A DNA stretch of 64,000 bases from Candidatus Marinacidobacterales bacterium. Its GTDB lineage: Bacteria > Acidobacteriota > Vicinamibacteria > Marinacidobacterales > SMYC01. Below are positions 22,731 to 59,391 of the stretch, piece after piece. The notes below the pieces were generated by a model. That model saw only the letters and a list, made by a program, of their open reading frames with translations, was not told the origin of the DNA and ran no database searches. The DNA lies in NCBI GenBank assembly GCA_965237955.1, contig OZ250169.1, positions 2,976,001 to 3,040,000 of the forward strand, written 5' to 3'. A program made the translations under genes and the position numbers. The number at the start of each line of letters is the position of its first letter. Position 1 is the first letter of the stretch.

Positions 22731-22914
22731 ATCGGCACCGGCGGGCGTGGGGTAGGTGCCTAGTGGAGCAATCCACAAGGAGCGCCGCCCCCCGTCTTGT
22801 GCCAAAACCTCGGCCCTTTTGAAATAGACCATAAATCAGCAGCTTAGTGTCTATGTTTGCGACCGGGCCAAGGCGACGCAAGGGTCTTGAGTTCGTTTGT
22901 ATTTTTGGACACGA

Positions 22915-23816
22915 GTGCGTCCAGCGAAGGCTGGCATGTTCAGTGGGAGAGAGTCCCACCGGGGAAAAAGTTAGCGCCCCGTAGCTTGAGTCACGTTCGT
23001 GGAGGAAACGAGACGGATGAAGCTGACTGACAAAGCCATCTTGAGGATGGTGAGCGAGTCACCGGGCCGTAACACAAGTGAACCCATAGGTGGCCCCGAC
23101 AAAAAAATAGACCCCAGAGGCCGAGTTTTCTCGTGTCGGACGAAGGCAACAGGGATGTGTCGCCAGACTATCTGATGAGGCACATCCCTCTGGCGGGGTG
23201 GTAGGGACAGCACGGTGACAAGGACATGCCAAGCAACTGGAGAAGCCGTCCTCGTCCCGTCGAGAAATCGACGGAGCAAGGTAGACCGCATAACCGGAGG
23301 CCCCGGGAAAACGGTTGAAGACGAGACGGTGGCGGCTGGGTCCGTAGTAGCGTTGAAACGGGGCAACGCCCGTGGAGCAAAGGGGCCCTGCTGCACACAA
23401 CTCCTTCGTCAACAAGCGAGGCAGGGGTGAGATGACAAAATCACCCATCACTCTGCAGGAGCTGAGATGAAGGATATACGTCAAGGCGAAGGCCGAGAAG
23501 TCTTGGCGCTTCTTGCGCCAAGGTTTCGGCTGGAAGCGATGGAGTAGGCGATGGATGTAGGCGACTGTCGGACTGTTCACAGATTACCGAGTTCGATATC
23601 TCGTAGATTCGCCGAAAGACGCCCCGGCTCGATAGGTCACATAACCCTTCGCGGGAAGTGTGCAGGAGCGCGTAGTGCGGGAAAGCCGCACGCTGCGTGC
23701 GATGTGGCGGGGGCTGGAAACGGACTTACGGTGCGGCTAGTGAGGCACTCCCACAGGAAACGGGGAGAAACAGATAGGCCGCGCCTACGGAGCACCGCGC
23801 CAGCCCTCGACCCTAC
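22915..23816 (+). mobile_element. Group II intron with internally deleted reverse transcriptase ORF
   Basis: 5' GTGCG. Domain V GAGCGCGTAGTGCGGGAAAGCCGCACGCTGCGTGC. 3' end CGACCCTAC. ORF remnant MTKSPITLQELR*RIYVKAKAEKSWRF joined to RQGFGWKRWS. Confidence 0.9.
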
Positions 23817-24214
23817 CGGGATTGCAAAACTGCATTGCAGTACTGATTCGATTGGCGATACCTTTATGCAAGGCGGGAACTGCTGACACTTAACTTGGGA
23901 CTGAAGAATTCATTGTGGCTATTGTTCGACAACGTCGACAAAGGCTAGCCGACCAACGGAATTCAGGGGGAGGATTTGGTCATCATCCGAGCGCTCCTTA
24001 AAGCGACGAGAAAGCTGGAGCGTCGGCTTCGCCGAGGTGACTTCGATTGTCGGACGCTGGTGTTCCTAAGACATGGTGCGAGGAGATCAATCGGGCACAG
24101 TCGGACGTGTCCTATGATTTCGTCTTTGTGGACGAAGAGAGCTTCAACAGATACAGCCCAAAATCATTTGCCGACCTTGCTACCAATTTCCGTCAGTACA
24201 AGGAGGGCTGAATC

Positions 24215-25717
24215 ATGACCGCGCCGGTCACCGCCTCAATGCTTTACGATTTGGTTTCTTGTCCGCATCGCGTGACCATGGACCTTTTCGCCGACCAGGC
24301 GCAACGCGATGAGTCAAACCCGTTTGTTCAATTGCTTTGGGAGAAGGGTAACATCTATGAGAAAGAGGTTATTGAGAGGCTGGAAATGCCCCTTACCGAT
24401 CTCTCAATATACGCAGGTGATGAAAAGGAACGGCTGACTTTTGAGGCTATGCATGGCGGCGAACCGCTAATCTACAGTGGACGTATGCAGGCCGAAGGCC
24501 TTCTTGGAGACCCGGACCTGCTGCGCCAAGAGGGTGACGGGTATGTCGCTGGAGATATCAAGTCAGGCGCAGGGGAGGAAGGCTCGGGTGACCTGTCGAA
24601 ACCCAAGAAGCACTACGCGGTGCAACTCGGGCTCTACACAGACATCCTGGAACGTAAGGGCCTTTCTGCCGGGAAACGTGGCTTTATCTGGGATATTGAT
24701 GGCCAAGAAATCATCTATGACTTTATAAAACCATACGGGAAACGGAATCCACGCACGCTCTGGGAGGATTATCAGGATTGCCTCGCCGAGGCCCAGGCGA
24801 TAGTCGGCAAGAGCACGGAGACGCTTGCCGCCTATAGCGGGGTTTGCAAGCTCTGTCATTGGTACAGCGCTTGTATCTCACGCCTAACCGATGCGAACGA
24901 TCTGACGCTGATTCCTGAGTTGGGCAGGTCGAAGCGTGACGTGATGATGGAACGTATCGCAACGATCCGGGACCTGGCCGAGGCTTACCCCGCAGAATTT
25001 GTCACGGGCAAGAAAACGATCTTCCCCGGCATAGGTCTCGCGACTCTAGAGAAGCTGCACGCCCGAGCGAAGCTGATTACGGCGGGGAAGAAGGCCAAGC
25101 CCTATCTCCGCGAACCGGTAACGCTGCCGGTCGCCGATCTGGAACTGTACTTCGACATCGAAGTCGATCCCATGCGCAACATCTGTTACCTGCACGGTTT
25201 TGTCGAACGGCGGGGCGGCGACAACGACACAGAACGGTTTATCACTTTCTTCGCCGAGCAAACAACCGCAGAGGCTGAGAAGCAGGCTTTTGCCGAGGCT
25301 TGGCGCTACATGCAGGAAAGCCAGCCCTGCGTGATCTACTACTACTCGAAGTACGAGCGAACCATCTATCGAAAGCTACGTGAGAAATATCCGGACGTCT
25401 GCAAGGAGGACGAACTGGAGGCGCTATTCGACCCGGTACGGGCCGTGGACCTCTATTCTAATGTGGTGCTGAAGGCCACAGAATGGCCAACACGAGACTT
25501 CTCAATCAAAACACTGGCGAACTATCTCGTCTTTGCGTGGCGCGACACACATCCCTCGGGGGCGGCTTCAATCGAATGGTTCCATAGGTGGGTAGAAACG
25601 GGTGACCCTACGATTCGCCAGCGCATTCTTGATTATAACGAAGACGATTGCCGTGCGACGCGCGTTCTGCGGGATGCTCTTGACAGCTTGATCGTGATGC
25701 CGGAGGGGCCCGGATGA
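24215..25717 (+). CDS. TM0106 family RecB-like nuclease (with RNase H-like domain)
   Basis: PDLL...GDIKS...YAVQLGLY, YFDIE and YNEDDCRAT motifs. Confidence 0.88.
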   Translation: MTAPVTASMLYDLVSCPHRVTMDLFADQAQRDESNPFVQLLWEKGNIYEKEVIERLEMPLTDLSIYAGDEKERLTFEAMHGGEPLIYSGRMQAEGLLGDPDLLRQEGDGYVAGDIKSGAGEEGSGDLSKPKKHYAVQLGLYTDILERKGLSAGKRGFIWDIDGQEIIYDFIKPYGKRNPRTLWEDYQDCLAEAQAIVGKSTETLAAYSGVCKLCHWYSACISRLTDANDLTLIPELGRSKRDVMMERIATIRDLAEAYPAEFVTGKKTIFPGIGLATLEKLHARAKLITAGKKAKPYLREPVTLPVADLELYFDIEVDPMRNICYLHGFVERRGGDNDTERFITFFAEQTTAEAEKQAFAEAWRYMQESQPCVIYYYSKYERTIYRKLREKYPDVCKEDELEALFDPVRAVDLYSNVVLKATEWPTRDFSIKTLANYLVFAWRDTHPSGAASIEWFHRWVETGDPTIRQRILDYNEDDCRATRVLRDALDSLIVMPEGPG

Positions 25718-25950
25718 ACAATACACAGCAAACGCATGACGCTCAACAAATACTCTCCAGCCTGAGGGACCATCTTGCGCGGCATGACAAGCCTATCGCT
25801 TTCTTCTTAGGTGCTGGCACATCTTGTGCGATCAGAGTGGCGGTGCCCGATGACAAGGATAAGACGCAGCCGCTCATACCTGCCGTTGCCGAATTGACCA
25901 AGATATGCCGGGAAAAGGCGCGTGGCTTAGGCAAAAAGTATGAAGAGACA
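25714..25950 (+). pseudogene. SIR2-like protein N-terminal fragment, cut by an IS3 end
   Basis: IAFFLGAGTS...PLIPAVAELT; ATGA-coupled to the nuclease; TGAACCGCCC starts at 25951. Confidence 0.7.
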
Positions 25951-26530
25951 TGAACCGCCCCGGGAATCCCGGAGACTGTTTCAGTTGAGTCTCGCCACCT
26001 CGAGCGAGCCTTGTTGCGAGCGATAGTAGTTCAGTTCGTGCTCGACCGGTGGGATGTTTCCGATCGGTTCCAAGAGTCGTTGCGTGTTGTACCAGTGCAC
26101 CCCGTCCTGTGCCAAAACTCGGCCCTTTGAAATAGACCACAAATCAGCAGCTTAGACGCCCTTGGAATCCGCGCGGAAGCGAGGGTATTTCACGCCGCAG
26201 GGCTGCCTTCCGACCCCGTCCTGTGCCAAAACTCGGCCCTTTTGAAATAGACCATAACTCAGCAGCTTAGCGTCTGTGTTTGCGACCGGCCCAAGGGCCG
26301 TGGGCTTTACAATCGTCTAGCCCGAGGGTGTTATCTTCAGATCCATGATGACGTACCCCGTACAATTCCTACTGCTCGTTCTGGCTGGGTCAGCCGCCAG
26401 CAGCAGGAAGTGATTGTCCAGACGGAGACCGGGCGAACCACCATGGACGCTTCGAGAGCAGGTCCGGCGAATCGCGGAAGCCTGTGGCGCTCCGATTAAC
26501 TAGCCGGTCCAATCGGGCTATAATCTCGAC

Positions 26531-30722: not shown

Positions 30723-31081
30723 TGAACCGCCCCGGGGATGCTACTGGCTGATCTTCTCTTTTTTGCGGGTCGCAGGTATTTCGAACGGTATTACGGCATC
30801 ACGCTTGCCGAGGCGACCCCGTCCTGTGCCAAAACTCGGCCCTTTTGAAATAGACCACAAATCAGCAGCTTAGACGCCCTTGGAATCCGCGCAGAATCGA
30901 GGGTATTTCGCGCCGCAGGGCTGGCTTCCGACCCCTGAGCTGCGGGTGGCGAGCGACAGGCCCACCGGGGGTGCGCACGGCTGGCTCAAATCGGCTGCGG
31001 GGCGAGCTACGGGGCAGTGAACTTCGCACCCGGAAGTCCCTCATTAGACTGGACTTTATCGAGCACAAGAGCGAACGTTCG

Positions 31082-31516
31082 GTGATGCCGCAGGATACAG
31101 GGGTTGGGCGGAACGTCGTTCTGGACGGTTTGGACTTCGCCAGCTTGCGGCGGGTCTGGGAGCAGACCTTTGGGGCTGCTCCTCCAAGCTCGCTCTCTCG
31201 CGTTTTCATGCGCCGCGTTCTTGCGTACGAACGCCAGTGCCGGACCCTTGGCTGGCATTCGGCCACAACCCGGCGCGCTCTGGCTGCCATGGCGAACGAG
31301 ACACCAAGCTCCGGCGCTCTCGCAGGGTCCGTTTCTGCCGGCACCCATCTCGTCCGCGAGTGGAATGGCCGGACCTACCAGGTCGAGGTAATCGACAACG
31401 GCTATCGGTTCGATGGCAAAACCTATCCGTCCCTCACTACCATCGCAAAGCGAATCACCGGCACCCACTGGTCAGGACCACGCTTTTTCGGTCTCACGCC
31501 CAAGCGCAAGGCCTAA
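31082..31516 (+). CDS. DUF2924 domain protein
   Basis: As 677-1111. Confidence 0.85.
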   Translation: MMPQDTGVGRNVVLDGLDFASLRRVWEQTFGAAPPSSLSRVFMRRVLAYERQCRTLGWHSATTRRALAAMANETPSSGALAGSVSAGTHLVREWNGRTYQVEVIDNGYRFDGKTYPSLTTIAKRITGTHWSGPRFFGLTPKRKA

Positions 31517-31517
31517 C

Positions 31518-33179
31518 ATGAAGAAGATCCGCTGTGCCATCTATACGCGAAAGAGTGCGGAAGAGGGTCTCGAACAGGAGTTCAACTCCCTCGATGCGCA
31601 GCGAGAAGCCTGCGCCGCGTATGTCGCGAGCCAGAAAGCGGAGGGCTGGGTGCTGCTGCCAACCGTCTACGAGGACGCGGGGCTCTCGGGAGGAACCCTG
31701 GAGCGCCCGGGCCTGCAGCGCTTGCTCGCCGACATCGACGCAGGTCTCGTCGACCAGATTGTGGTCTACAAGGTCGACCGGCTGACCCGTTCCCTCTCCG
31801 ACTTTGCAAAGCTCGTCGAGCGGCTCGAGGCGGCCGGCGCGGTTTTCGTCTCGGTGACTCAGTCCTTCAACACCGCGACCAGCATGGGACGACTGACGCT
31901 GCATATGCTGCTGTCCTTCGCACAATTCGAACGCGAGGTCACGGCCGAGCGGATCCGCGATAAGGTCGCTGCCTCCAAGCGCAAGGGACTATGGATGGGC
32001 GGCCGCGTACCGCTCGGCTATGAGAAGGACGGGCGCACGCTGCGCATCAACGAGGCTGAGGCCGAAACGGTCCGGACGCTCTATGCGCTGTACCGAAAGC
32101 ACGAAACGCTCCGGCAGGTGAAGGCCGAGGCGGACCGTCTGAGACTGCGTACCAAGCAACGCTTCACCGCGGATGGAACCCGAACGGGCGGGCTGCCGTT
32201 CCGTCGCGGACACCTCCACTGCCTGCTGACCAATCCTCTCTACGCCGGCCGCATCCGGCACCAGAGGCGTGTCTACGAGGGCCAGCATCCATCGATCATT
32301 GCTCCGGAGCTCTGGGACGCGGTCCAAACGCAGCTGCAGGCAGGGGCTGCCAAACCAAGGAGACGCACGACGAAGGGCCGTGCCGCCCGTTCCCCACTGG
32401 CAGGCAAGCTCTTCGACGAGACCGGGGACCGGCTGACGCCGAGCCACACCAAAAAGAAAAACGGGCAACGGCTCCGCTACTACGTCTCCCGGCGCCTCAT
32501 CCAGCACAGTGGCCAAAAGGACCTCTCCGGCTGGCGACTGCCCGCCCCGATGCTGGAACAGACCGCCGTGCATCTCATCCGACAGCATGTGGATGCCACG
32601 ACCTTCTCGGCCTCGTTGATCCACACTCCGACGATGCAAGAGCTCGCCTCGGTGCGTCGCTTTTTAGACGGGCTGTGTTCCGGTAGTAATGATGATAGTG
32701 CCTCGGCAGCCCCCCTGCTCCGTCTTATCCGGCGGGTCGACATCAGCCCCGGCTCTGTGTCCATCCTGCTCGACCGCAATGCGTTCGCTGCTTGCCTCTC
32801 TATGGGACCCGAACGCATTCGCGAGGATGCACTCCGCATCCTCGCACCGTTCCGCTTGCGTCGACGCAGCGTCGAGACCAAGCTCGTTCTGGGCAACCCC
32901 ACGAAATCCGTCGACCGCACACTCCTGCGCAATATCAGAAACGCCCGCTCCTGGCTCGGCCGAATCAAAGCAGGCAAAACCTATGAGCAGATTGCCACCG
33001 AAAACGCCATCCCAACGGACCGCGTGCGCAAGGCAATCCGTTATGCCTTCCTGGCTCCCGACATCGTCCGCGCCATTGTCGAAGGCCGCCAGCCCGTTGG
33101 GCTGACCTCGAGCTACCTCTTGCATCATCCGCTTCCCGACGATTGGGAGAAACAGCGAGTGCTCGTCAAAACGCTGTGA
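31518..33179 (+). CDS. Large serine recombinase (resolvase plus recombinase domains), intact copy
   Basis: RCAIYTRKS, VVYKVDRLTRS, FAQFEREVTAER and LTNPLYAG motifs; C-terminal AFLAPDIVRAIVEGRQP...LPDDWEKQ. Confidence 0.92.
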   Translation: MKKIRCAIYTRKSAEEGLEQEFNSLDAQREACAAYVASQKAEGWVLLPTVYEDAGLSGGTLERPGLQRLLADIDAGLVDQIVVYKVDRLTRSLSDFAKLVERLEAAGAVFVSVTQSFNTATSMGRLTLHMLLSFAQFEREVTAERIRDKVAASKRKGLWMGGRVPLGYEKDGRTLRINEAEAETVRTLYALYRKHETLRQVKAEADRLRLRTKQRFTADGTRTGGLPFRRGHLHCLLTNPLYAGRIRHQRRVYEGQHPSIIAPELWDAVQTQLQAGAAKPRRRTTKGRAARSPLAGKLFDETGDRLTPSHTKKKNGQRLRYYVSRRLIQHSGQKDLSGWRLPAPMLEQTAVHLIRQHVDATTFSASLIHTPTMQELASVRRFLDGLCSGSNDDSASAAPLLRLIRRVDISPGSVSILLDRNAFAACLSMGPERIREDALRILAPFRLRRRSVETKLVLGNPTKSVDRTLLRNIRNARSWLGRIKAGKTYEQIATENAIPTDRVRKAIRYAFLAPDIVRAIVEGRQPVGLTSSYLLHHPLPDDWEKQRVLVKTL

Positions 33180-34501
33180 GCCTGCCAGCGCCCACTTCGT
33201 GAATGGGCTCGGTTAGCAGCAAGCTGCTCTCCGACACTGGCCTCCACCAATCAGCCTCAAACTGGCCCAAATTCCCTGTCATGGTTTCCAGACTCGGATA
33301 GCTCCTTGTACTGGACCGTCTGCGGAGTCATCTTCGTTTCCTCCGTAAAACTCCGCTGGATGAATTCGAGGTTTGGCCAATTCGAATTCCGCTATTCGCC
33401 TTCTCCTCAGGCGCGATCTAGGCGTTAAGCGTCTTCTCATTATCTGCGCGATTAAGTAGAAAAACGGCCCGATAAGCCCCAAAATCGCACCAAATTGCAC
33501 GTTAATGGCCTGTTTAGCTCTGTTTCTGATCGTTTCCAGCCAAGAATCGGAAGCTCCACTCGAGCCTCCTGACTGCGATAGCCGGAAAGATGTTCCCGTC
33601 GACGAACATTCGCTGATGAGACGTAAAGCCTTTTGCGACAATGAGTAACGGTCGGAGCCGCCTCCGGAGGGTTTACGACACGGCCCTCTTTCAGGCGTCC
33701 AGGAGGTTGAGATTGCCGTATAGAAAATTTGATTAAAGCAAATTCGATTCCGGCTCGGAACGAGCACCCGTCGATGATGCGTGCGGGGACCAGCACGTGA
33801 CAGCGGCCGTTAAATCACTGTAGAAAAATAGGATAGAAGGAAATGGGCACCAAGGTTGAAACCCGAGAGCGCGTAAAACAGCCTTCTCGCCAAACCTGCG
33901 TACGCATCAAAAAACTCAAGAAATGCGCGAAACTCGAAACCTCCTGAATCTCCACTGACTTTTCTGTTTGAGGATTTCCGCCAAAAGCTGGACCACCTTT
34001 TGCCGAGACCGGATAGCTCCAACCTGCACCATCCGCCACCCCGTCCTGTGCCAAAACTCGGCCCTTTTGAAATAGACCATTAATCAGCAGCTTAGTGTCT
34101 GTTGTGCCTTCTATTTATTCATCCGCGCGTCCCGAACTTGATTGATCTTCGGTCTACCAGCACCATGCCGGCATGATTTCGTCGTTGGTTCCCGCTCTCA
34201 TCTCTGCCTTCAAGGTTCGTCGCGAGCTAGCTCTCGAGAATGTCACTCTTCGGGAGCAGCTCGCCGTCCTCCACCATTCCGTGAAACGGCCGCTGGTTTT
34301 GGTGCCGCGTAACCCGCTCGTGTGCTAGAGTTTGAGCCTGATTTCGAGAGACGCAGTTCTTTCGGCGATGCGGGCTGGGCTGACCACACGGTGCCTGACG
34401 TTCAGAGACACCTTCGTGTGCACGCCGACATCCTTAATTAATGGCGTTCGCCGACACAGGCAGACCAGCTGACACTAGCATTCAAACACGGCGTAGCAAC
34501 A

Positions 34502-35973: not shown

Positions 35974-37455
35974 ATGCCGACGGCAAGAACCAGCGAGAGC
36001 CACCCACTGCGCATCACGGCGATGACCCTGGGCGACGGCCGGGGCCGGATCGGCTTCTCGCAGTGCCCCGGTAGGATCGATCGCTACGCAATATCCGGGC
36101 CCTGGAAGCGGGATCTCGACACCGACCTCGACGCGATTCAGCGCTGGGGAGCGACTGCGGTGGTCAGCCTGATCACCCACGAAGAGATCCCCGATCTGAA
36201 GGTGCACGATCTCCCGAGGGCGGTTCGAGACCGGCACATGGAGTGGTGGCATGCCCCGATTCCCGACGGAGAGGCACCGGAACAGGACTTCGAGCACGCC
36301 TGGAAGGCCACCGGCGAGTCCATCCGGAACCGGCTGCGGCTCGGCTTCGACGTGCTGCTCCACTGCCGGGGTGGTCTGGGACGCGCCGGGACCATCACAG
36401 CCCGCCTGCTGGTGGAGTTGGGCGTGCAACCGGACGATGCGATCCGCCGCGTGCGCGACGCCCGCGAATGGACCATCGAGAACGGCTCCCAGCTGGCTCA
36501 CGTGAGGCAGTGTTCGGCACAAGCACCATCGGTTCCATCCCGGACCGCGGACGACATCCACGACCGGGCGCTCGGGGCCTTCCTCGGTCTGGCGGTGGGC
36601 GACGCGGTCGGCACGACGCTCGAATTCTGCTCCCGCGATACGCAGCCGCGTCTAGAAGACATGGTCGGTGGCGGCCCGTTCGATCTGCCGGCCGGCGCTT
36701 GGACCGACGACACGGCCATGGCGCTGGCCCTGGCCGACAGCCTGGCGGAATCCAAGACGCTCGACTGCCGGGACCTGATGGACCGTTTCGTGAAGTGGTG
36801 GCGAGACGGAGACTACTCGTGGAGCGGAGACTGCTTCGACATTGGAAACACGACCTGCCAAGCGCTCACCCGGTACCTACGGACGGGTGACCCGGTCGCG
36901 GGTTCGACCGATCCCTTGAGCGCAGGCAACGGCTCGCTGATGCGGCTCGCCCCCGTTGCGCTCCGGTTCAGGCACGACCGGCCGCGCCTGCTCGCGGCAG
37001 CCGCCGACCAGTCCCGGACGACCCACGGAGGCGAGGAAGCAGTGGACGCCTGCCGGGCGTTCGGCGCACTCCTGGCAGACGCCATCGCCGGGTCACCGTT
37101 CTCGGACGTTCTGGCTCCGAGACGGTTCACGGGAGCGGCGGCAATCACTCAGGTCATAGCCGGCAGCTGGCGAGGACGGACACGGGATACGATCCGCTCC
37201 AGCGGGTACGTCGTTCACACGCTCGAAGCCGCCATCTGGTCAGTCGCCCGCACCGGAGACTTCCGCGGCGCGGTGCTGCTCGCGGCCAACCTGGCCGACG
37301 ACGCCGATACGGTAGCAGCAGTGACGGGGCAGCTCGCCGGCGCCCTCTACGGCCTGAACGCCATCCCCGACCACTGGCGGGAACGCGTTGCCTGGAAGGA
37401 TCGACTCCTGGCAGCGGCGCGGCGGTTGCTGTCGGAACCCCTTGCCGACCGGTAG
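35974..37455 (+). CDS. Protein phosphatase (CDKN3/DSP-like) fused to ADP-ribosylglycohydrolase
   Basis: HCRGGLGR P-loop; GDAVG, WTDDT, GNGSLMR and DADT motifs. Confidence 0.9.
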   Translation: MPTARTSESHPLRITAMTLGDGRGRIGFSQCPGRIDRYAISGPWKRDLDTDLDAIQRWGATAVVSLITHEEIPDLKVHDLPRAVRDRHMEWWHAPIPDGEAPEQDFEHAWKATGESIRNRLRLGFDVLLHCRGGLGRAGTITARLLVELGVQPDDAIRRVRDAREWTIENGSQLAHVRQCSAQAPSVPSRTADDIHDRALGAFLGLAVGDAVGTTLEFCSRDTQPRLEDMVGGGPFDLPAGAWTDDTAMALALADSLAESKTLDCRDLMDRFVKWWRDGDYSWSGDCFDIGNTTCQALTRYLRTGDPVAGSTDPLSAGNGSLMRLAPVALRFRHDRPRLLAAAADQSRTTHGGEEAVDACRAFGALLADAIAGSPFSDVLAPRRFTGAAAITQVIAGSWRGRTRDTIRSSGYVVHTLEAAIWSVARTGDFRGAVLLAANLADDADTVAAVTGQLAGALYGLNAIPDHWRERVAWKDRLLAAARRLLSEPLADR

Positions 37456-55926: not shown

Positions 55927-57116
55927 CTACCGGTCGGCAAGGGGTTCCGACAGCAACCGCCGCGCCGCTGCCAGGAGTCGATCCTTCCAGGCAACGCGTT
56001 CCCGCCAGTGGTCGGGGATGGCGTTCAGGCCGTAGAGGGCGCCGGCGAGCTGCCCCGTCACTGCTGCTACCGTATCGGCGTCGTCGGCCAGGTTGGCCGC
56101 GAGCAGCACCGCGCTGCGGAAGTCTCCGGTGCGGGCGACTGACCAAATGGCGGCTTCGAGCGTGTGAACGACGCACCCGCTGGAGCGGATCGTATCCCGT
56201 GTCCGTCCTCGCCAGCTGCCGGCTATGACCTGAGTGATTGCCGCCGCTCCCGTGAACCGTCTCGGAGCCAGAACGTCCGAGAACGGTGACCCGGCGATGG
56301 CGTCTGCCAGGAGTGCGCCGAACGCCCGGCAGGCGTCCACTGCTTCCTCGGCTCCGTGGGTCGTCCGGGACTGGTCGGCGGCTGCCGCGAGCAGGCGCGG
56401 CCGGTCGTGCCTGAACCGGAGCGCAACGGGGGCGAGCCGCATCAGCGAGCCGTTGCCTGCGCTCAAGGGATCGGTCGAACCCGCGACCGGGTCACCCGTC
56501 CGTAGGTACCGGGTGAGCGCTTGGCAGGTCGTGTTTCCGATGTCGAAGCAGTCTCCGCTCCACGAGTAGTCTCCGTCTCGCCACCACTTCACGAAACGGT
56601 CCATCAGGTCCCGGCAGTCGAGCGTCTTGGATTCCGCCAGGCTGTCGGCAAGGGCCAGCGCCATGGCCGTGTCGTCGGTCCAAGCACCGGCCGGCAGATC
56701 GAACGGGCCGCCACCGACCATGTCTTCTAGACGCGGCTGCGTATCGCGGGAGCAGAATTCGAGCGTCGTGCCGACCGCGTCGCCCACCGCCAGACCGAGG
56801 AAGGCCCCGAGCGCCCGGTCGTGGATGTCGTCCGCGGTCCGGGATGGAACCGATGGTGCTTGTGCCGAACACTGCCTCACGTGGGCCAGCTGGGAGTCGT
56901 TCTCGATGGTCCCTTCGTGGGCGTCGCGCACGCGGCGGATCGCATCGTCCGGTTGCACGCCCAACTCCACCAGCAGGCGGGCTGTGATGGTCCCGGCGCG
57001 TCCCAGACCACCCCGACAGTGGAGCAGCACGTCGAAGCCGAGCCGCAGTCGGTTCCTGATGGACTCGCCGGTGGCCTTCCAGGCGTGCTCGAAGTCCTGT
57101 TCCGGAGCCTCTCCGT
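55927..57116 (-). pseudogene. 5'-truncated phosphatase/ADP-ribosylglycohydrolase copy
   Basis: Matches 36266-37455. Confidence 0.85.
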
Positions 57117-58201
57117 GGCGTTGTTGCACCGCTCTGGCTGAGAGCGAAATCCGCCTATGGTGGTGGCCGAGGTATGTTCGAGCATGAAGTATCCCAAGCG
57201 CTGCCAGTACAAGCACGCGAAGCAGAAGAAGTACCACGTTCGCAACTGGGCGGAATACAACGAAGGGCTGCGCCGCCGGGGCGATTTGACAGTCTGGTTT
57301 GACGAGGAGGCAATCGCGAACTGGAAGGCCGACAAGACCGGTAAGCCTGGCGGTCAACGGGTCTATTCAGACATGGCGATTGAAACGGGCCTGGTTGTCC
57401 GGATGGTGTACAAGCTCGCCTACCGACAAACCGAAGGCTTCTTGCACTCGATCGCCTCGCTTCTCGGGCTCGGTATCGAGATCCCGGACTACTCGACGTT
57501 GTGTCGGCGCTCGAGGTTGCTCCGCAAGAAGCTGCGGATTCCGAAAGCCGCGAGCACTCAACCCATCCACCTGATGATCGATAGCACGGGCTTGAGGATT
57601 CATGTTGGAACCGCCCGCAAACCGCCAAAGCTGCGCGCATGGCGCAAGTTGCACATCGCCGTTGATCGCGAGACAGGGAACATTGTTGCGTCCAAACTGA
57701 CGGCGTCACGAGCTCGCGACGCAACCCGAGTCCTCTCTTTGCTAACACAGATTCAAGCACCTCTAGTGTCGGTGGCGGCGGACAGTGCATACGACAAGGA
57801 AGCGGTCTACGAAGCCATCGAAGCGCACAGTCCTGGACGAAGGACGCGCGTGGTGATTCCGCCGCAACGAAACGCGACGCTCAGTCAGAATTCGAACACC
57901 GCCATGCAGGAGCGCGATCGCCATATTCGTGCAATCGAAAGACACGGCCGACGTGAATGGTACAAGCTCTCAGGCTACACCAAGCGAAGCATGGTGGAGA
58001 ACGCGGTCTATCGTTACAAGGCGATCATCGGGCCGGAGATGCGGGCTCGAACGTTGGCGAGGCAACGAGTTGAACACCGAATTGGGTGCGAGATACTCAA
58101 CAAGATGGCTGCGCTCGGGATGCCCGATACGTACTGCGCCGGGTGACTCTGCAACCGGCACAGGGAGGTCAGCGATTTGCTCCGGGCCGTGCAACAACGC
58201 C
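57117..58201 (+). mobile_element. IS5 family element B, copy 2 (transposase 57184-58146)
   Basis: 1085 bp, same TIRs. Confidence 0.92.
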
Positions 58202-59391
58202 ACGGAGAGGCACCGGAACAGGACTTCGAGCACGCCTGGAAGGCCACCGGCGAGTCCATCAGGAACCGGCTGCGGCTCGGCTTCGACGTGCTGCTCCACT
58301 GCCGGGGTGGTCTGGGACGCGCCGGGACCATCACAGCCCGCCTGCTGGTGGAGTTGGGCGTGCAACCGGACGATGCGATCCGCCGCGTGCGCGACGCCCG
58401 CGAATGGACCATCGAGAACGGCTCCCAGCTGGCTCACGTGAGGCAGTGTTCGGCACAAGCACCATCGGTTCCATCCCGGACCGCGGACGACATCCACGAC
58501 CGGGCGCTCGGGGCCTTCCTCGGTCTGGCGGTGGGCGACGCGGTCGGCACGACGCTCGAATTCTGCTCCCGCGATACGCAGCCGCGTCTAGAAGACATGG
58601 TCGGTGGCGGCCCGTTCGATCTGCCGGCCGGCGCTTGGACCGACGACACGGCCATGGCGCTGGCCCTTGCCGACAGCCTGGCGGAATCCAAGACGCTCGA
58701 CTGCCGGGACCTGATGGACCGTTTCGTGAAGTGGTGGCGAGACGGAGACTACTCGTGGAGCGGAGACTGCTTCGACATCGGAAACACGACCTGCCAAGCG
58801 CTCACCCGGTACCTACGGACGGGTGACCCGGTCGCGGGTTCGGCCGATCCCTTGAGCGCAGGCAACGGCTCGCTGATGCGGCTCGCCCCCGTTGCGCTCC
58901 GGTTCAGGCACGACCGGCCGCGCCTGATCGCAGCAGCCGCCGACCAGTCCCGGACGACCCACGGAGCCGAGGAAGCAGTGGACGCCTGCCGGGCGTTCGG
59001 CGAGCTCCTAGCGGACGCCATCGCCGGGTCACCGTTCTCGGACGTTCTGGCTCCGAGACGGTTCACGGGAGCGGCGGCAATCACTCAGGTCATAGCCGGC
59101 AGCTGGCGAGGACGGACACGGGATACGATCCGCTCCAGCGGGTACGTCGTTCACACGCTCGAAGCCGCCATCTGGTCAGTCGCCCGCACCGGAGACTTCC
59201 GCGGCGCGGTGCTGCTCGCGGCCAACCTGGCCGACGACGCCGATACGGTAGCAGCAGTGACGGGGCAGCTCGCCGGCGCCCTCTACGGCCTGAACGCCAT
59301 CCCCGACCACTGGCGGGAACGCGTTGCCTGGAAGGATCGACTCCTGGCAGCGGCGCGGCGGTTGCTGTCGGAACCCCTTGCCGACCGGTAG
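58202..59391 (+). pseudogene. 5'-truncated phosphatase/ADP-ribosylglycohydrolase copy
   Basis: Matches 36266-37455; mirror image of 55927-57116. Confidence 0.85.

Follow-up and report, generated by a model that had tools for sequence, protein, structure and literature searches.

Two habits of bacterial group II introns, each already published, bear on the locus described here: homing to the inverted repeats of insertion sequences (IS), which is known from rhizobia, and trans-mobility of introns that carry no ORF. The first is represented by RmInt2 of Sinorhizobium meliloti GR4, which is described as homing to the inverted repeats of ISRm17 (PMC4615759; PMC5894124). The intron studied here resembles RmInt2, as described, in being an En-minus group IIB intron that uses IS inverted repeats as homing sites and tolerates relaxed pairing. 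However, RmInt2 is given as an RmInt1-related intron with its own protein, whereas the present intron is class F/g2-like and ORF-less, lies 2 nt from an IS481-like tip, and is one of a larger group of relatives that have been retargeted to many IS ends of this kind. The second habit is represented by the TeI3 introns of Thermosynechococcus elongatus, which are ORF-less and reported to be mobilised by driver proteins (PMC2882425). The likeness to TeI3 extends to a single shared deletion in DIVb that leaves remnants of the ORF at its N- and C-terminal ends, to good pairing of EBS with IBS and to sites in IS elements or other introns. In contrast to TeI3, whose drivers are reported from the same genome, none was found in the carriers of our intron, and its copies are 98-99% identical in two host families. 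A third known intron, B.th.I3, is placed in group g2, which was earlier called class F or left unclassified (PMC3552965). It shares with this family an RT-X protein of about 435 aa, a FADD motif and an intron length of about 2 kb, and its protein and the intact sister L114 have 48% identity. It differs in that its locus is listed as transposase and in that the 5' exon given for it lacks the G-A-T-run tip motif described below. A literature search found no description of this intron lineage or of homing to IS481 tips; earlier surveys could contain one.

The intron lies in a 64-kb stretch of DNA, here called the window, from a genome of 8.13 Mb with 60% GC (Table 1). A preliminary description of this DNA had given its boundaries and two EBS/IBS complementarities, and we reproduced all of them exactly. 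The intron starts with GTGCG and ends with CCCTAC, between the exons ...TTTTTGGACACGA and CG..., and it has the GUGYG 5' end, AY 3' end and six-domain fold of group II, together with the AGC triad in DV and the bulged A in DVI. EBS1, EBS2 and EBS3 each pair with the exons, as in subgroup IIB. Rfam model RF02003 (domain I) scored 120 bits over 22941-23077, and RF00029 (DV/DVI) scored 28.2 bits against a cut-off of 40, with the long DVI inserted within the match. In the consensus fold (RNAalifold, 21 related introns), 55 of the 135 predicted pairs of DI-DIII show two-sided changes. As had been described, both ends and domain V are intact and the RT ORF is nearly gone, through a deletion of ~1.1 kb. 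RNA contigs from four runs span parts of the intron with no joint across 22914/23817, and such contigs cannot reveal splicing or level. Part of the window is present in 13 RNA runs, some of them labelled sponge metagenome, and a promoter scan gave 0 sites.

Table 1. Features of the intron and its target in the window.
Feature	Position	Strand	Basis
Host element: hybrid R1-R2 MITE, about 124 bp including the split-off CG; 5' exon	22793..22914	+	comparison with empty MITEs
IBS2 region (IS inverted-repeat T-run)	22900..22907	+	complementarity; T-run at -13 to -10 in 13-17/20 non-DV targets
IBS1, ACACGA	22909..22914	+	complementarity; G at 22908 may give a seventh pair
Intron of group IIB (class F/g2-like), 902 nt, without an ORF	22915..23816	+	boundaries, Rfam, consensus fold
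EBS2 linker, single-stranded A-run	23100..23109	+	unpaired in consensus fold
Id3 hairpin; loop 23129-23137 with EBS1 UCGUGU at 23131-23136	23125..23141	+	consensus fold
EBS3 (G), pairs with exon +1 C	23201..23201	+	comparison of 41 loci
RT/maturase remnant: N-terminal 27 codons joined to C-terminal tail, two internal stops	23432..23635	+	translation
Deletion junction hairpin; its arms flank the 1.1-kb ORF loop in full-length relatives	23502..23522	+	comparison with full-length relatives
Domain V, AGC triad	23666..23699	+	nearly identical to full-length L040 and L122
Domain VI, long; bulged A at 23810 (-7)	23706..23816	+	sequence/fold inspection
Terminal CG of R2, cut off from the remaining repeat; 3' exon	23817..23818	+	tip placed from 223 R2 ends

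The target of the intron is the multicopy terminus R2. We identify it here, as the preliminary description had not: R2 is the inverted repeat at the termini of an abundant insertion sequence, IS481-like (rve_3), and of its MITEs. Genome-wide we counted 513 R1 and 223 R2 ends (736 together), with tips CGT...ACG. An rve_3 transposase is enclosed where R1-R1 pairs span about 1,428 bp and where R2-R2 pairs span about 1,350 bp, and the shorter pairs are MITEs. The element is like the IS481 family in having one rve_3/HTH transposase ORF and unlike it in its tips, which are not the TGT...ACA of IS481. NCBIfam model NF033577 (IS481) is the best match of the transposase, at 99 bits, and because this score lies under the cut-off of 224 we call the element IS481-like only. 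The R2 arm of the host element recurs in two empty R1-R2 MITEs, 123 and 137 bp long, at C1:408292 and C1:326457. A complete IS of 1315 bp (L122) contains a degenerate ORF-bearing intron, 88% identical to ours, at the same GA^CG and with the same EBS1, and a metagenome scan for the EBS1 hairpin found one locus, identical in sequence to L122. A reading of R1 and R2 as att sites of a large serine recombinase element, with CG as the crossover core, was rejected, since the empty alleles are mostly without CG and the paired ends enclose transposases.

Several features of the surrounding DNA were seen alongside. The gene of the large serine recombinase (Resolvase + Recombinase) is preceded by a small ORF; it occurs at window 30820-34040 and 1113-2126 and in about 33 copies genome-wide, and its element usually opens with an R1 end. 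A DSP-phosphatase + ADP-ribosylglycohydrolase gene has two copies (window 35974-37455 and 55927-59391), the second interrupted by an IS5-type element. The R1 and R2 ends are restricted to a few IS-dense zones, at about 2.75-3.75 Mb and, spanning the contig ends, at about 7.75-1.25 Mb. Hardly any element has kept both of its original flanks, a sign of rampant deletion and rearrangement driven by IS.

Two stretches of domain I match the end of the inverted repeat: TCGTGTC (23131-23137) is complementary to 22908-22914 and AAAAATA (23103-23109) to 22900-22906. The functional EBS1 is best read as the 6 nt UCGUGU rather than as 7 nt, and the register of EBS2 is ambiguous inside its run of seven A, where CAAAAA/TTTTTG pairs 6/6 as well. 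In the alignment fold of domain I the EBS1 motif falls within the Id3 loop and the run of A within the EBS2 linker, bearing out their assignment as EBS elements; a single-sequence MFE fold wrongly puts EBS1 in a stem, and only the alignment of 21 introns resolves it. The C at 23130 in the Id3 loop is near-invariant and is a putative delta. Perfect pairing with both regions occurred in 0 of 20,000 random genomic 14-mers. Across 24 loci with targets other than domain V (non-DV loci), EBS1-IBS1 pairing averaged 5.6/6, compared with a permutation mean of 4.23 and a maximum of 4.69; the automatic target labels used in this comparison misfiled at least L010, L071, L075 and L094, and those in the tree discussed below were assigned by eye. 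The EBS3:+1 pair is G:C as a rule among 41 loci and A:T, a compensatory change, in L065, L071 and L123, with L099 and L122 as exceptions. EBS1 and EBS3 clearly covary with the exon across the clade. Within the lineage, one copy (C1:2041985) with EBS1 UCCUGU sits at a GACAGGA end, a perfect compensatory change; the other two UCCUGU copies are at GACACGA, and covariation at this level is thus 1/3.

All three full copies in this genome lie at R2 GA^CG, and they occupy 3 of the approximately 142 R2 ends that match perfectly. Intron matches were found in 15 of the 61 genomes searched. Full-length copies, 98-99% identical, are present in two genomes of the same family (G012, G015) and in two of another (G021, G033), and fragments that cross the deletion junction are present in G008 and G018. 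We collected 32 intron 5' ends from eight genomes, 23 of which (seven genomes) are at least 95% identical, and 22 of these 23 near-identical ends, in seven genomes other than this one, lie at R2-type ends. The insertion position in IS inverted repeats is fixed, as in homing of the RmInt2 type, and the proposed specialisation on R2 holds apart from one case of the kind named in advance as contrary to it: L163/L010, a full copy with the same EBS1, lies at a unique site outside any IS with 3/6 EBS1 pairs and reads as an ectopic insertion. Twelve distinct 3' flanks carry the deletion junction, the 5' exons of the copies fall in several R2 subtypes, and the upstream elements differ from copy to copy. 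One junction at many sites with good EBS/IBS pairing is the pattern of a trans-mobilised ORF-less intron, and because of the 12 flanks the deleted form probably moved after it had lost the ORF. Since the window copy and C1:2041985 have a common 2,286-nt downstream block, at least one of these two is a recombinant or duplicate and not a separate homing event. This block (window 23817-26102 and C1 downstream of 2041086, minus strand) contains a nuclease gene, PD-(D/E)XK + RNase H-like, at 24215-25717, and the two intron copies before it differ only in their first 305 nt. The insertions showed no bias towards either replication strand, with 7 co-directional cases among 18 unique sites (p = 0.48). 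At C1:6210729-6212203 (minus strand) lies a sister intron of 73% identity that is IS-split, truncated ahead of the ORF and at a non-R2 site; L174 is similar.

The deletion removed about 1,110 nt compared with the full-length L040 and sits at the base of a conserved stem. In the closest full-length relatives the two arms that it joins can pair over 9-10 nt, and the arms flanking the ORF loop are complementary over at least 7 nt in 28 of the 47 loci tested. Because the junction joins two complementary arms, we suggest that the ORF was lost in a jump from one side to the other of the stem closing its loop. The junction was absent from 300 other genomes drawn across the phylum, a sample in which the known carriers were not seen. 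At least two further independent ORF-less derivatives have a junction near intron 580/721-726 (L013/L048 in G013; C1:886182-886404); these and L038 (G012), which carries this other deletion, have different EBS1 sequences, and L013 is 766 nt long.

The wider family was examined in 79 loci with related RTs, taken from the best 80 of 475. These loci have mainly two target types, the DV of other group II introns versus an IS-end motif, which consists of G-A-T-run-N6 followed by CA or CG. In the 600 nt upstream, 11/30 of the DV-target loci have an RT and 0/30 an rve_3 transposase, whereas at the non-DV loci a transposase is found within this distance in 8/20 and an RT in 0/20. The remaining 12/20 non-DV targets have no nearby transposase, and a partner inverted repeat was found at 3/22 non-DV loci. 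The DV-targeting loci include L056, L057, L076, L079-L088, L101-L111, L123 and L131, and DV-inserted full-length relatives come from Burkholderiaceae, Bradyrhizobium, Undibacterium, Sporomusa and others. Some introns stand head to tail: the 3' flank of L099 is another GTGTG start, and the 5' flank of L071 is an intron 3' end. The proteins of the full-length relatives have a FADD motif and RVT_1 + GIIM only, without an En domain, as expected of the RT-X proteins of class F/g2 (criteria given by Toro and Martinez-Abarca 2013, PMC3552965); the FADD motif is not unique to g2 and is present in L002 too. Among three named references B.th.I3 is nearest, at 45% compared with 33% for g3 and 32% for g1; this comparison covered a single g2 reference, the branches are long, and L056, whose row held the wrong ORF, was left out. 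In the quick RT tree, which used 38 of 75 rows and has long-branched outgroups, the DV-targeters form one clade (SH-aLRT 99) within an unresolved grade of IS-end targeters, and B.th.I3 (g2) falls outside both. We tentatively suggest that the DV-targeting clade arose among IS-end targeters.

The preliminary description had proposed a trans-mobilised retroelement and a search for a full-length RT donor, and no such donor was found in this genome or in nine kin. The assembly is 98% complete, and the best match to the cognate RT within it has 34% identity and is of another class. Its own RTs, three intact and one split, are at most 34% identical to the cognate type apart from short pieces; they are group II RTs of other types, at C1:373303-374700, 559455-560840, 3588621-3590075 and 1030007-1030628. 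In the nine kin no intact cognate RT was found either, and the close RTs there are fragmentary or frameshifted. The intact, related driver protein in the same genome that characterises TeI3 was not found here. A kin genome, G009, encodes an intact 436-aa sister protein, in an intron that shares 85% identity with ours over its 5' part and has another IS end as its target. The proposal of trans-mobilisation is thus supported by the 12 distinct flanks that carry the junction and is weakened by the lack of an intact cognate RT in the carriers.

The structure, the pairing, the identity of the target, the outward insertion 2 nt from the tip, and the recurrence of one junction across many sites and two host families are direct observations. 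We consider it likely that this is a non-autonomous IIB intron that retrohomes to IS481-like inverted-repeat ends with an RT/maturase borrowed from a full-length sister. EBS1, EBS2 and EBS3 would direct it to the last bases of the inverted repeat, and the 902-nt intron, once a jump across the stem had removed its ORF, would have retained splicing and reverse splicing. The helper would be a sister class F/g2 protein, now or formerly in the population and missing from this assembly, and the copies here are likely stranded for want of it. Besides the missing RT, this reading has against it that UCCUGU fits its exon in only 1/3 copies, that one copy in 23 is ectopic, that a downstream block is shared by two copies, that only 3 of some 142 perfectly matching R2 ends hold a full intron, and that 12/20 non-DV targets have no transposase nearby. 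Insertion parts the terminal CG from the R2 repeat by 902 nt, and the R2 end that is hit would no longer be able to transpose. Continued cutting of hit ends at their former position should yield R2 ends that are tipped with GT and have new flanks; the GT-tipped R2 ends still have intron sequence in 3/3 cases here and in 17/17 in five kin (20/20, small numbers), which indirectly favours inactivation. The intron likely disables the R2 end at the DNA level, as had been proposed.

An alternative that we think unlikely is a fossil passenger: a few homing events would date from a time when an RT was available, and all later spread would be due to rearranged DNA and to horizontally transferred IS-rich segments. 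The 12 distinct flanks, the several R2 subtypes among the 5' exons, the full ectopic copy outside any IS and the intact ribozyme domains all argue against this, even though the carriers have no cognate RT, two copies share their 2,286-nt downstream block, a 73-nt remnant is repeated eight times with identical flanks, and fragments are the majority of copies. For the present state of this one genome, such a history is compatible with the borrowed-helper reading that we prefer.

The fragments are themselves informative. Intron 3' ends outnumber 5' ends by 40:5 here and by 100:22 in five kin, counts that include a few sister introns. The 3' ends here have 27 distinct flanks, 24 of which begin with CG and then match the R2 outer-flank pattern [G/C]GNTCG, and for this reason the 3' remnants mark former R2 tips. 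Most bacterial intron copies are reported to be truncated (PMC4028801), and loss of the 3' end is described as the general route of decay (PMC5894124); the remnants here keep the 3' part, the opposite of that route. We read them as the product of trimming from the side of the dead IS, in which neighbouring live IS ends would remove the disabled host end together with the 5' part of the intron and leave a short 3' remnant and CG. A stalling, poorly matched RT could instead have aborted retrohoming in or near DV/DVI and left 5'-truncated insertions, which would account for the excess of 3' ends and for the finding that 18 of the 22 same-lineage remnants are at most 114 nt long and start 3' of DV. 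We regard this as improbable, because none of the 24 distinct truncated remnants is joined to its own CG-less R2 exon, 7/24 adjoin the intact tip of a multicopy element in a strict test (control 3/150) and about 8 more do so by eye, and long remnants are also found in the kin genomes.

Least probable is composite transposition, in which the split end would stay usable and the IS or MITE would move with the intron inside, cut after the displaced CG so that the 3' flanks are IS targets: the post-CG flanks do match the IS target pattern, but homing into existing ends predicts the same, the repeat lies 902 nt from its CG, the upstream elements vary between copies, and the ectopic copy and the clade-wide EBS covariation are left unexplained.

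A broader reading goes beyond retrohoming with a borrowed protein, and we offer it as a possibility that is less likely than not. The family may be a broad and apparently undescribed class F/g2 lineage specialised on IS481-like tips, from which the DV-invading clade is derived, and its gene-less offshoot may cross host families with no RT of its own and kill IS ends. On the same tentative footing, EBS1 may have been re-tuned for each IS subfamily while the A-rich EBS2 reads the conserved T-run, and every short 3' remnant, about 24 here, may be a disabled and purged IS end.

The locus points to a system with three layers of parasites: an IS, an intron family aimed at the tip of that IS, and a gene-less intron that likely depends on the protein of the family. 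Whereas an intron in a transposase gene can be spliced out again, insertion 2 nt from the tip is beyond repair by splicing, and the excess of 3' remnants would give a countable record of such hits. They would therefore act as a DNA-level brake on an IS group that riddles these genomes, with 736 R1 and R2 ends in this one.
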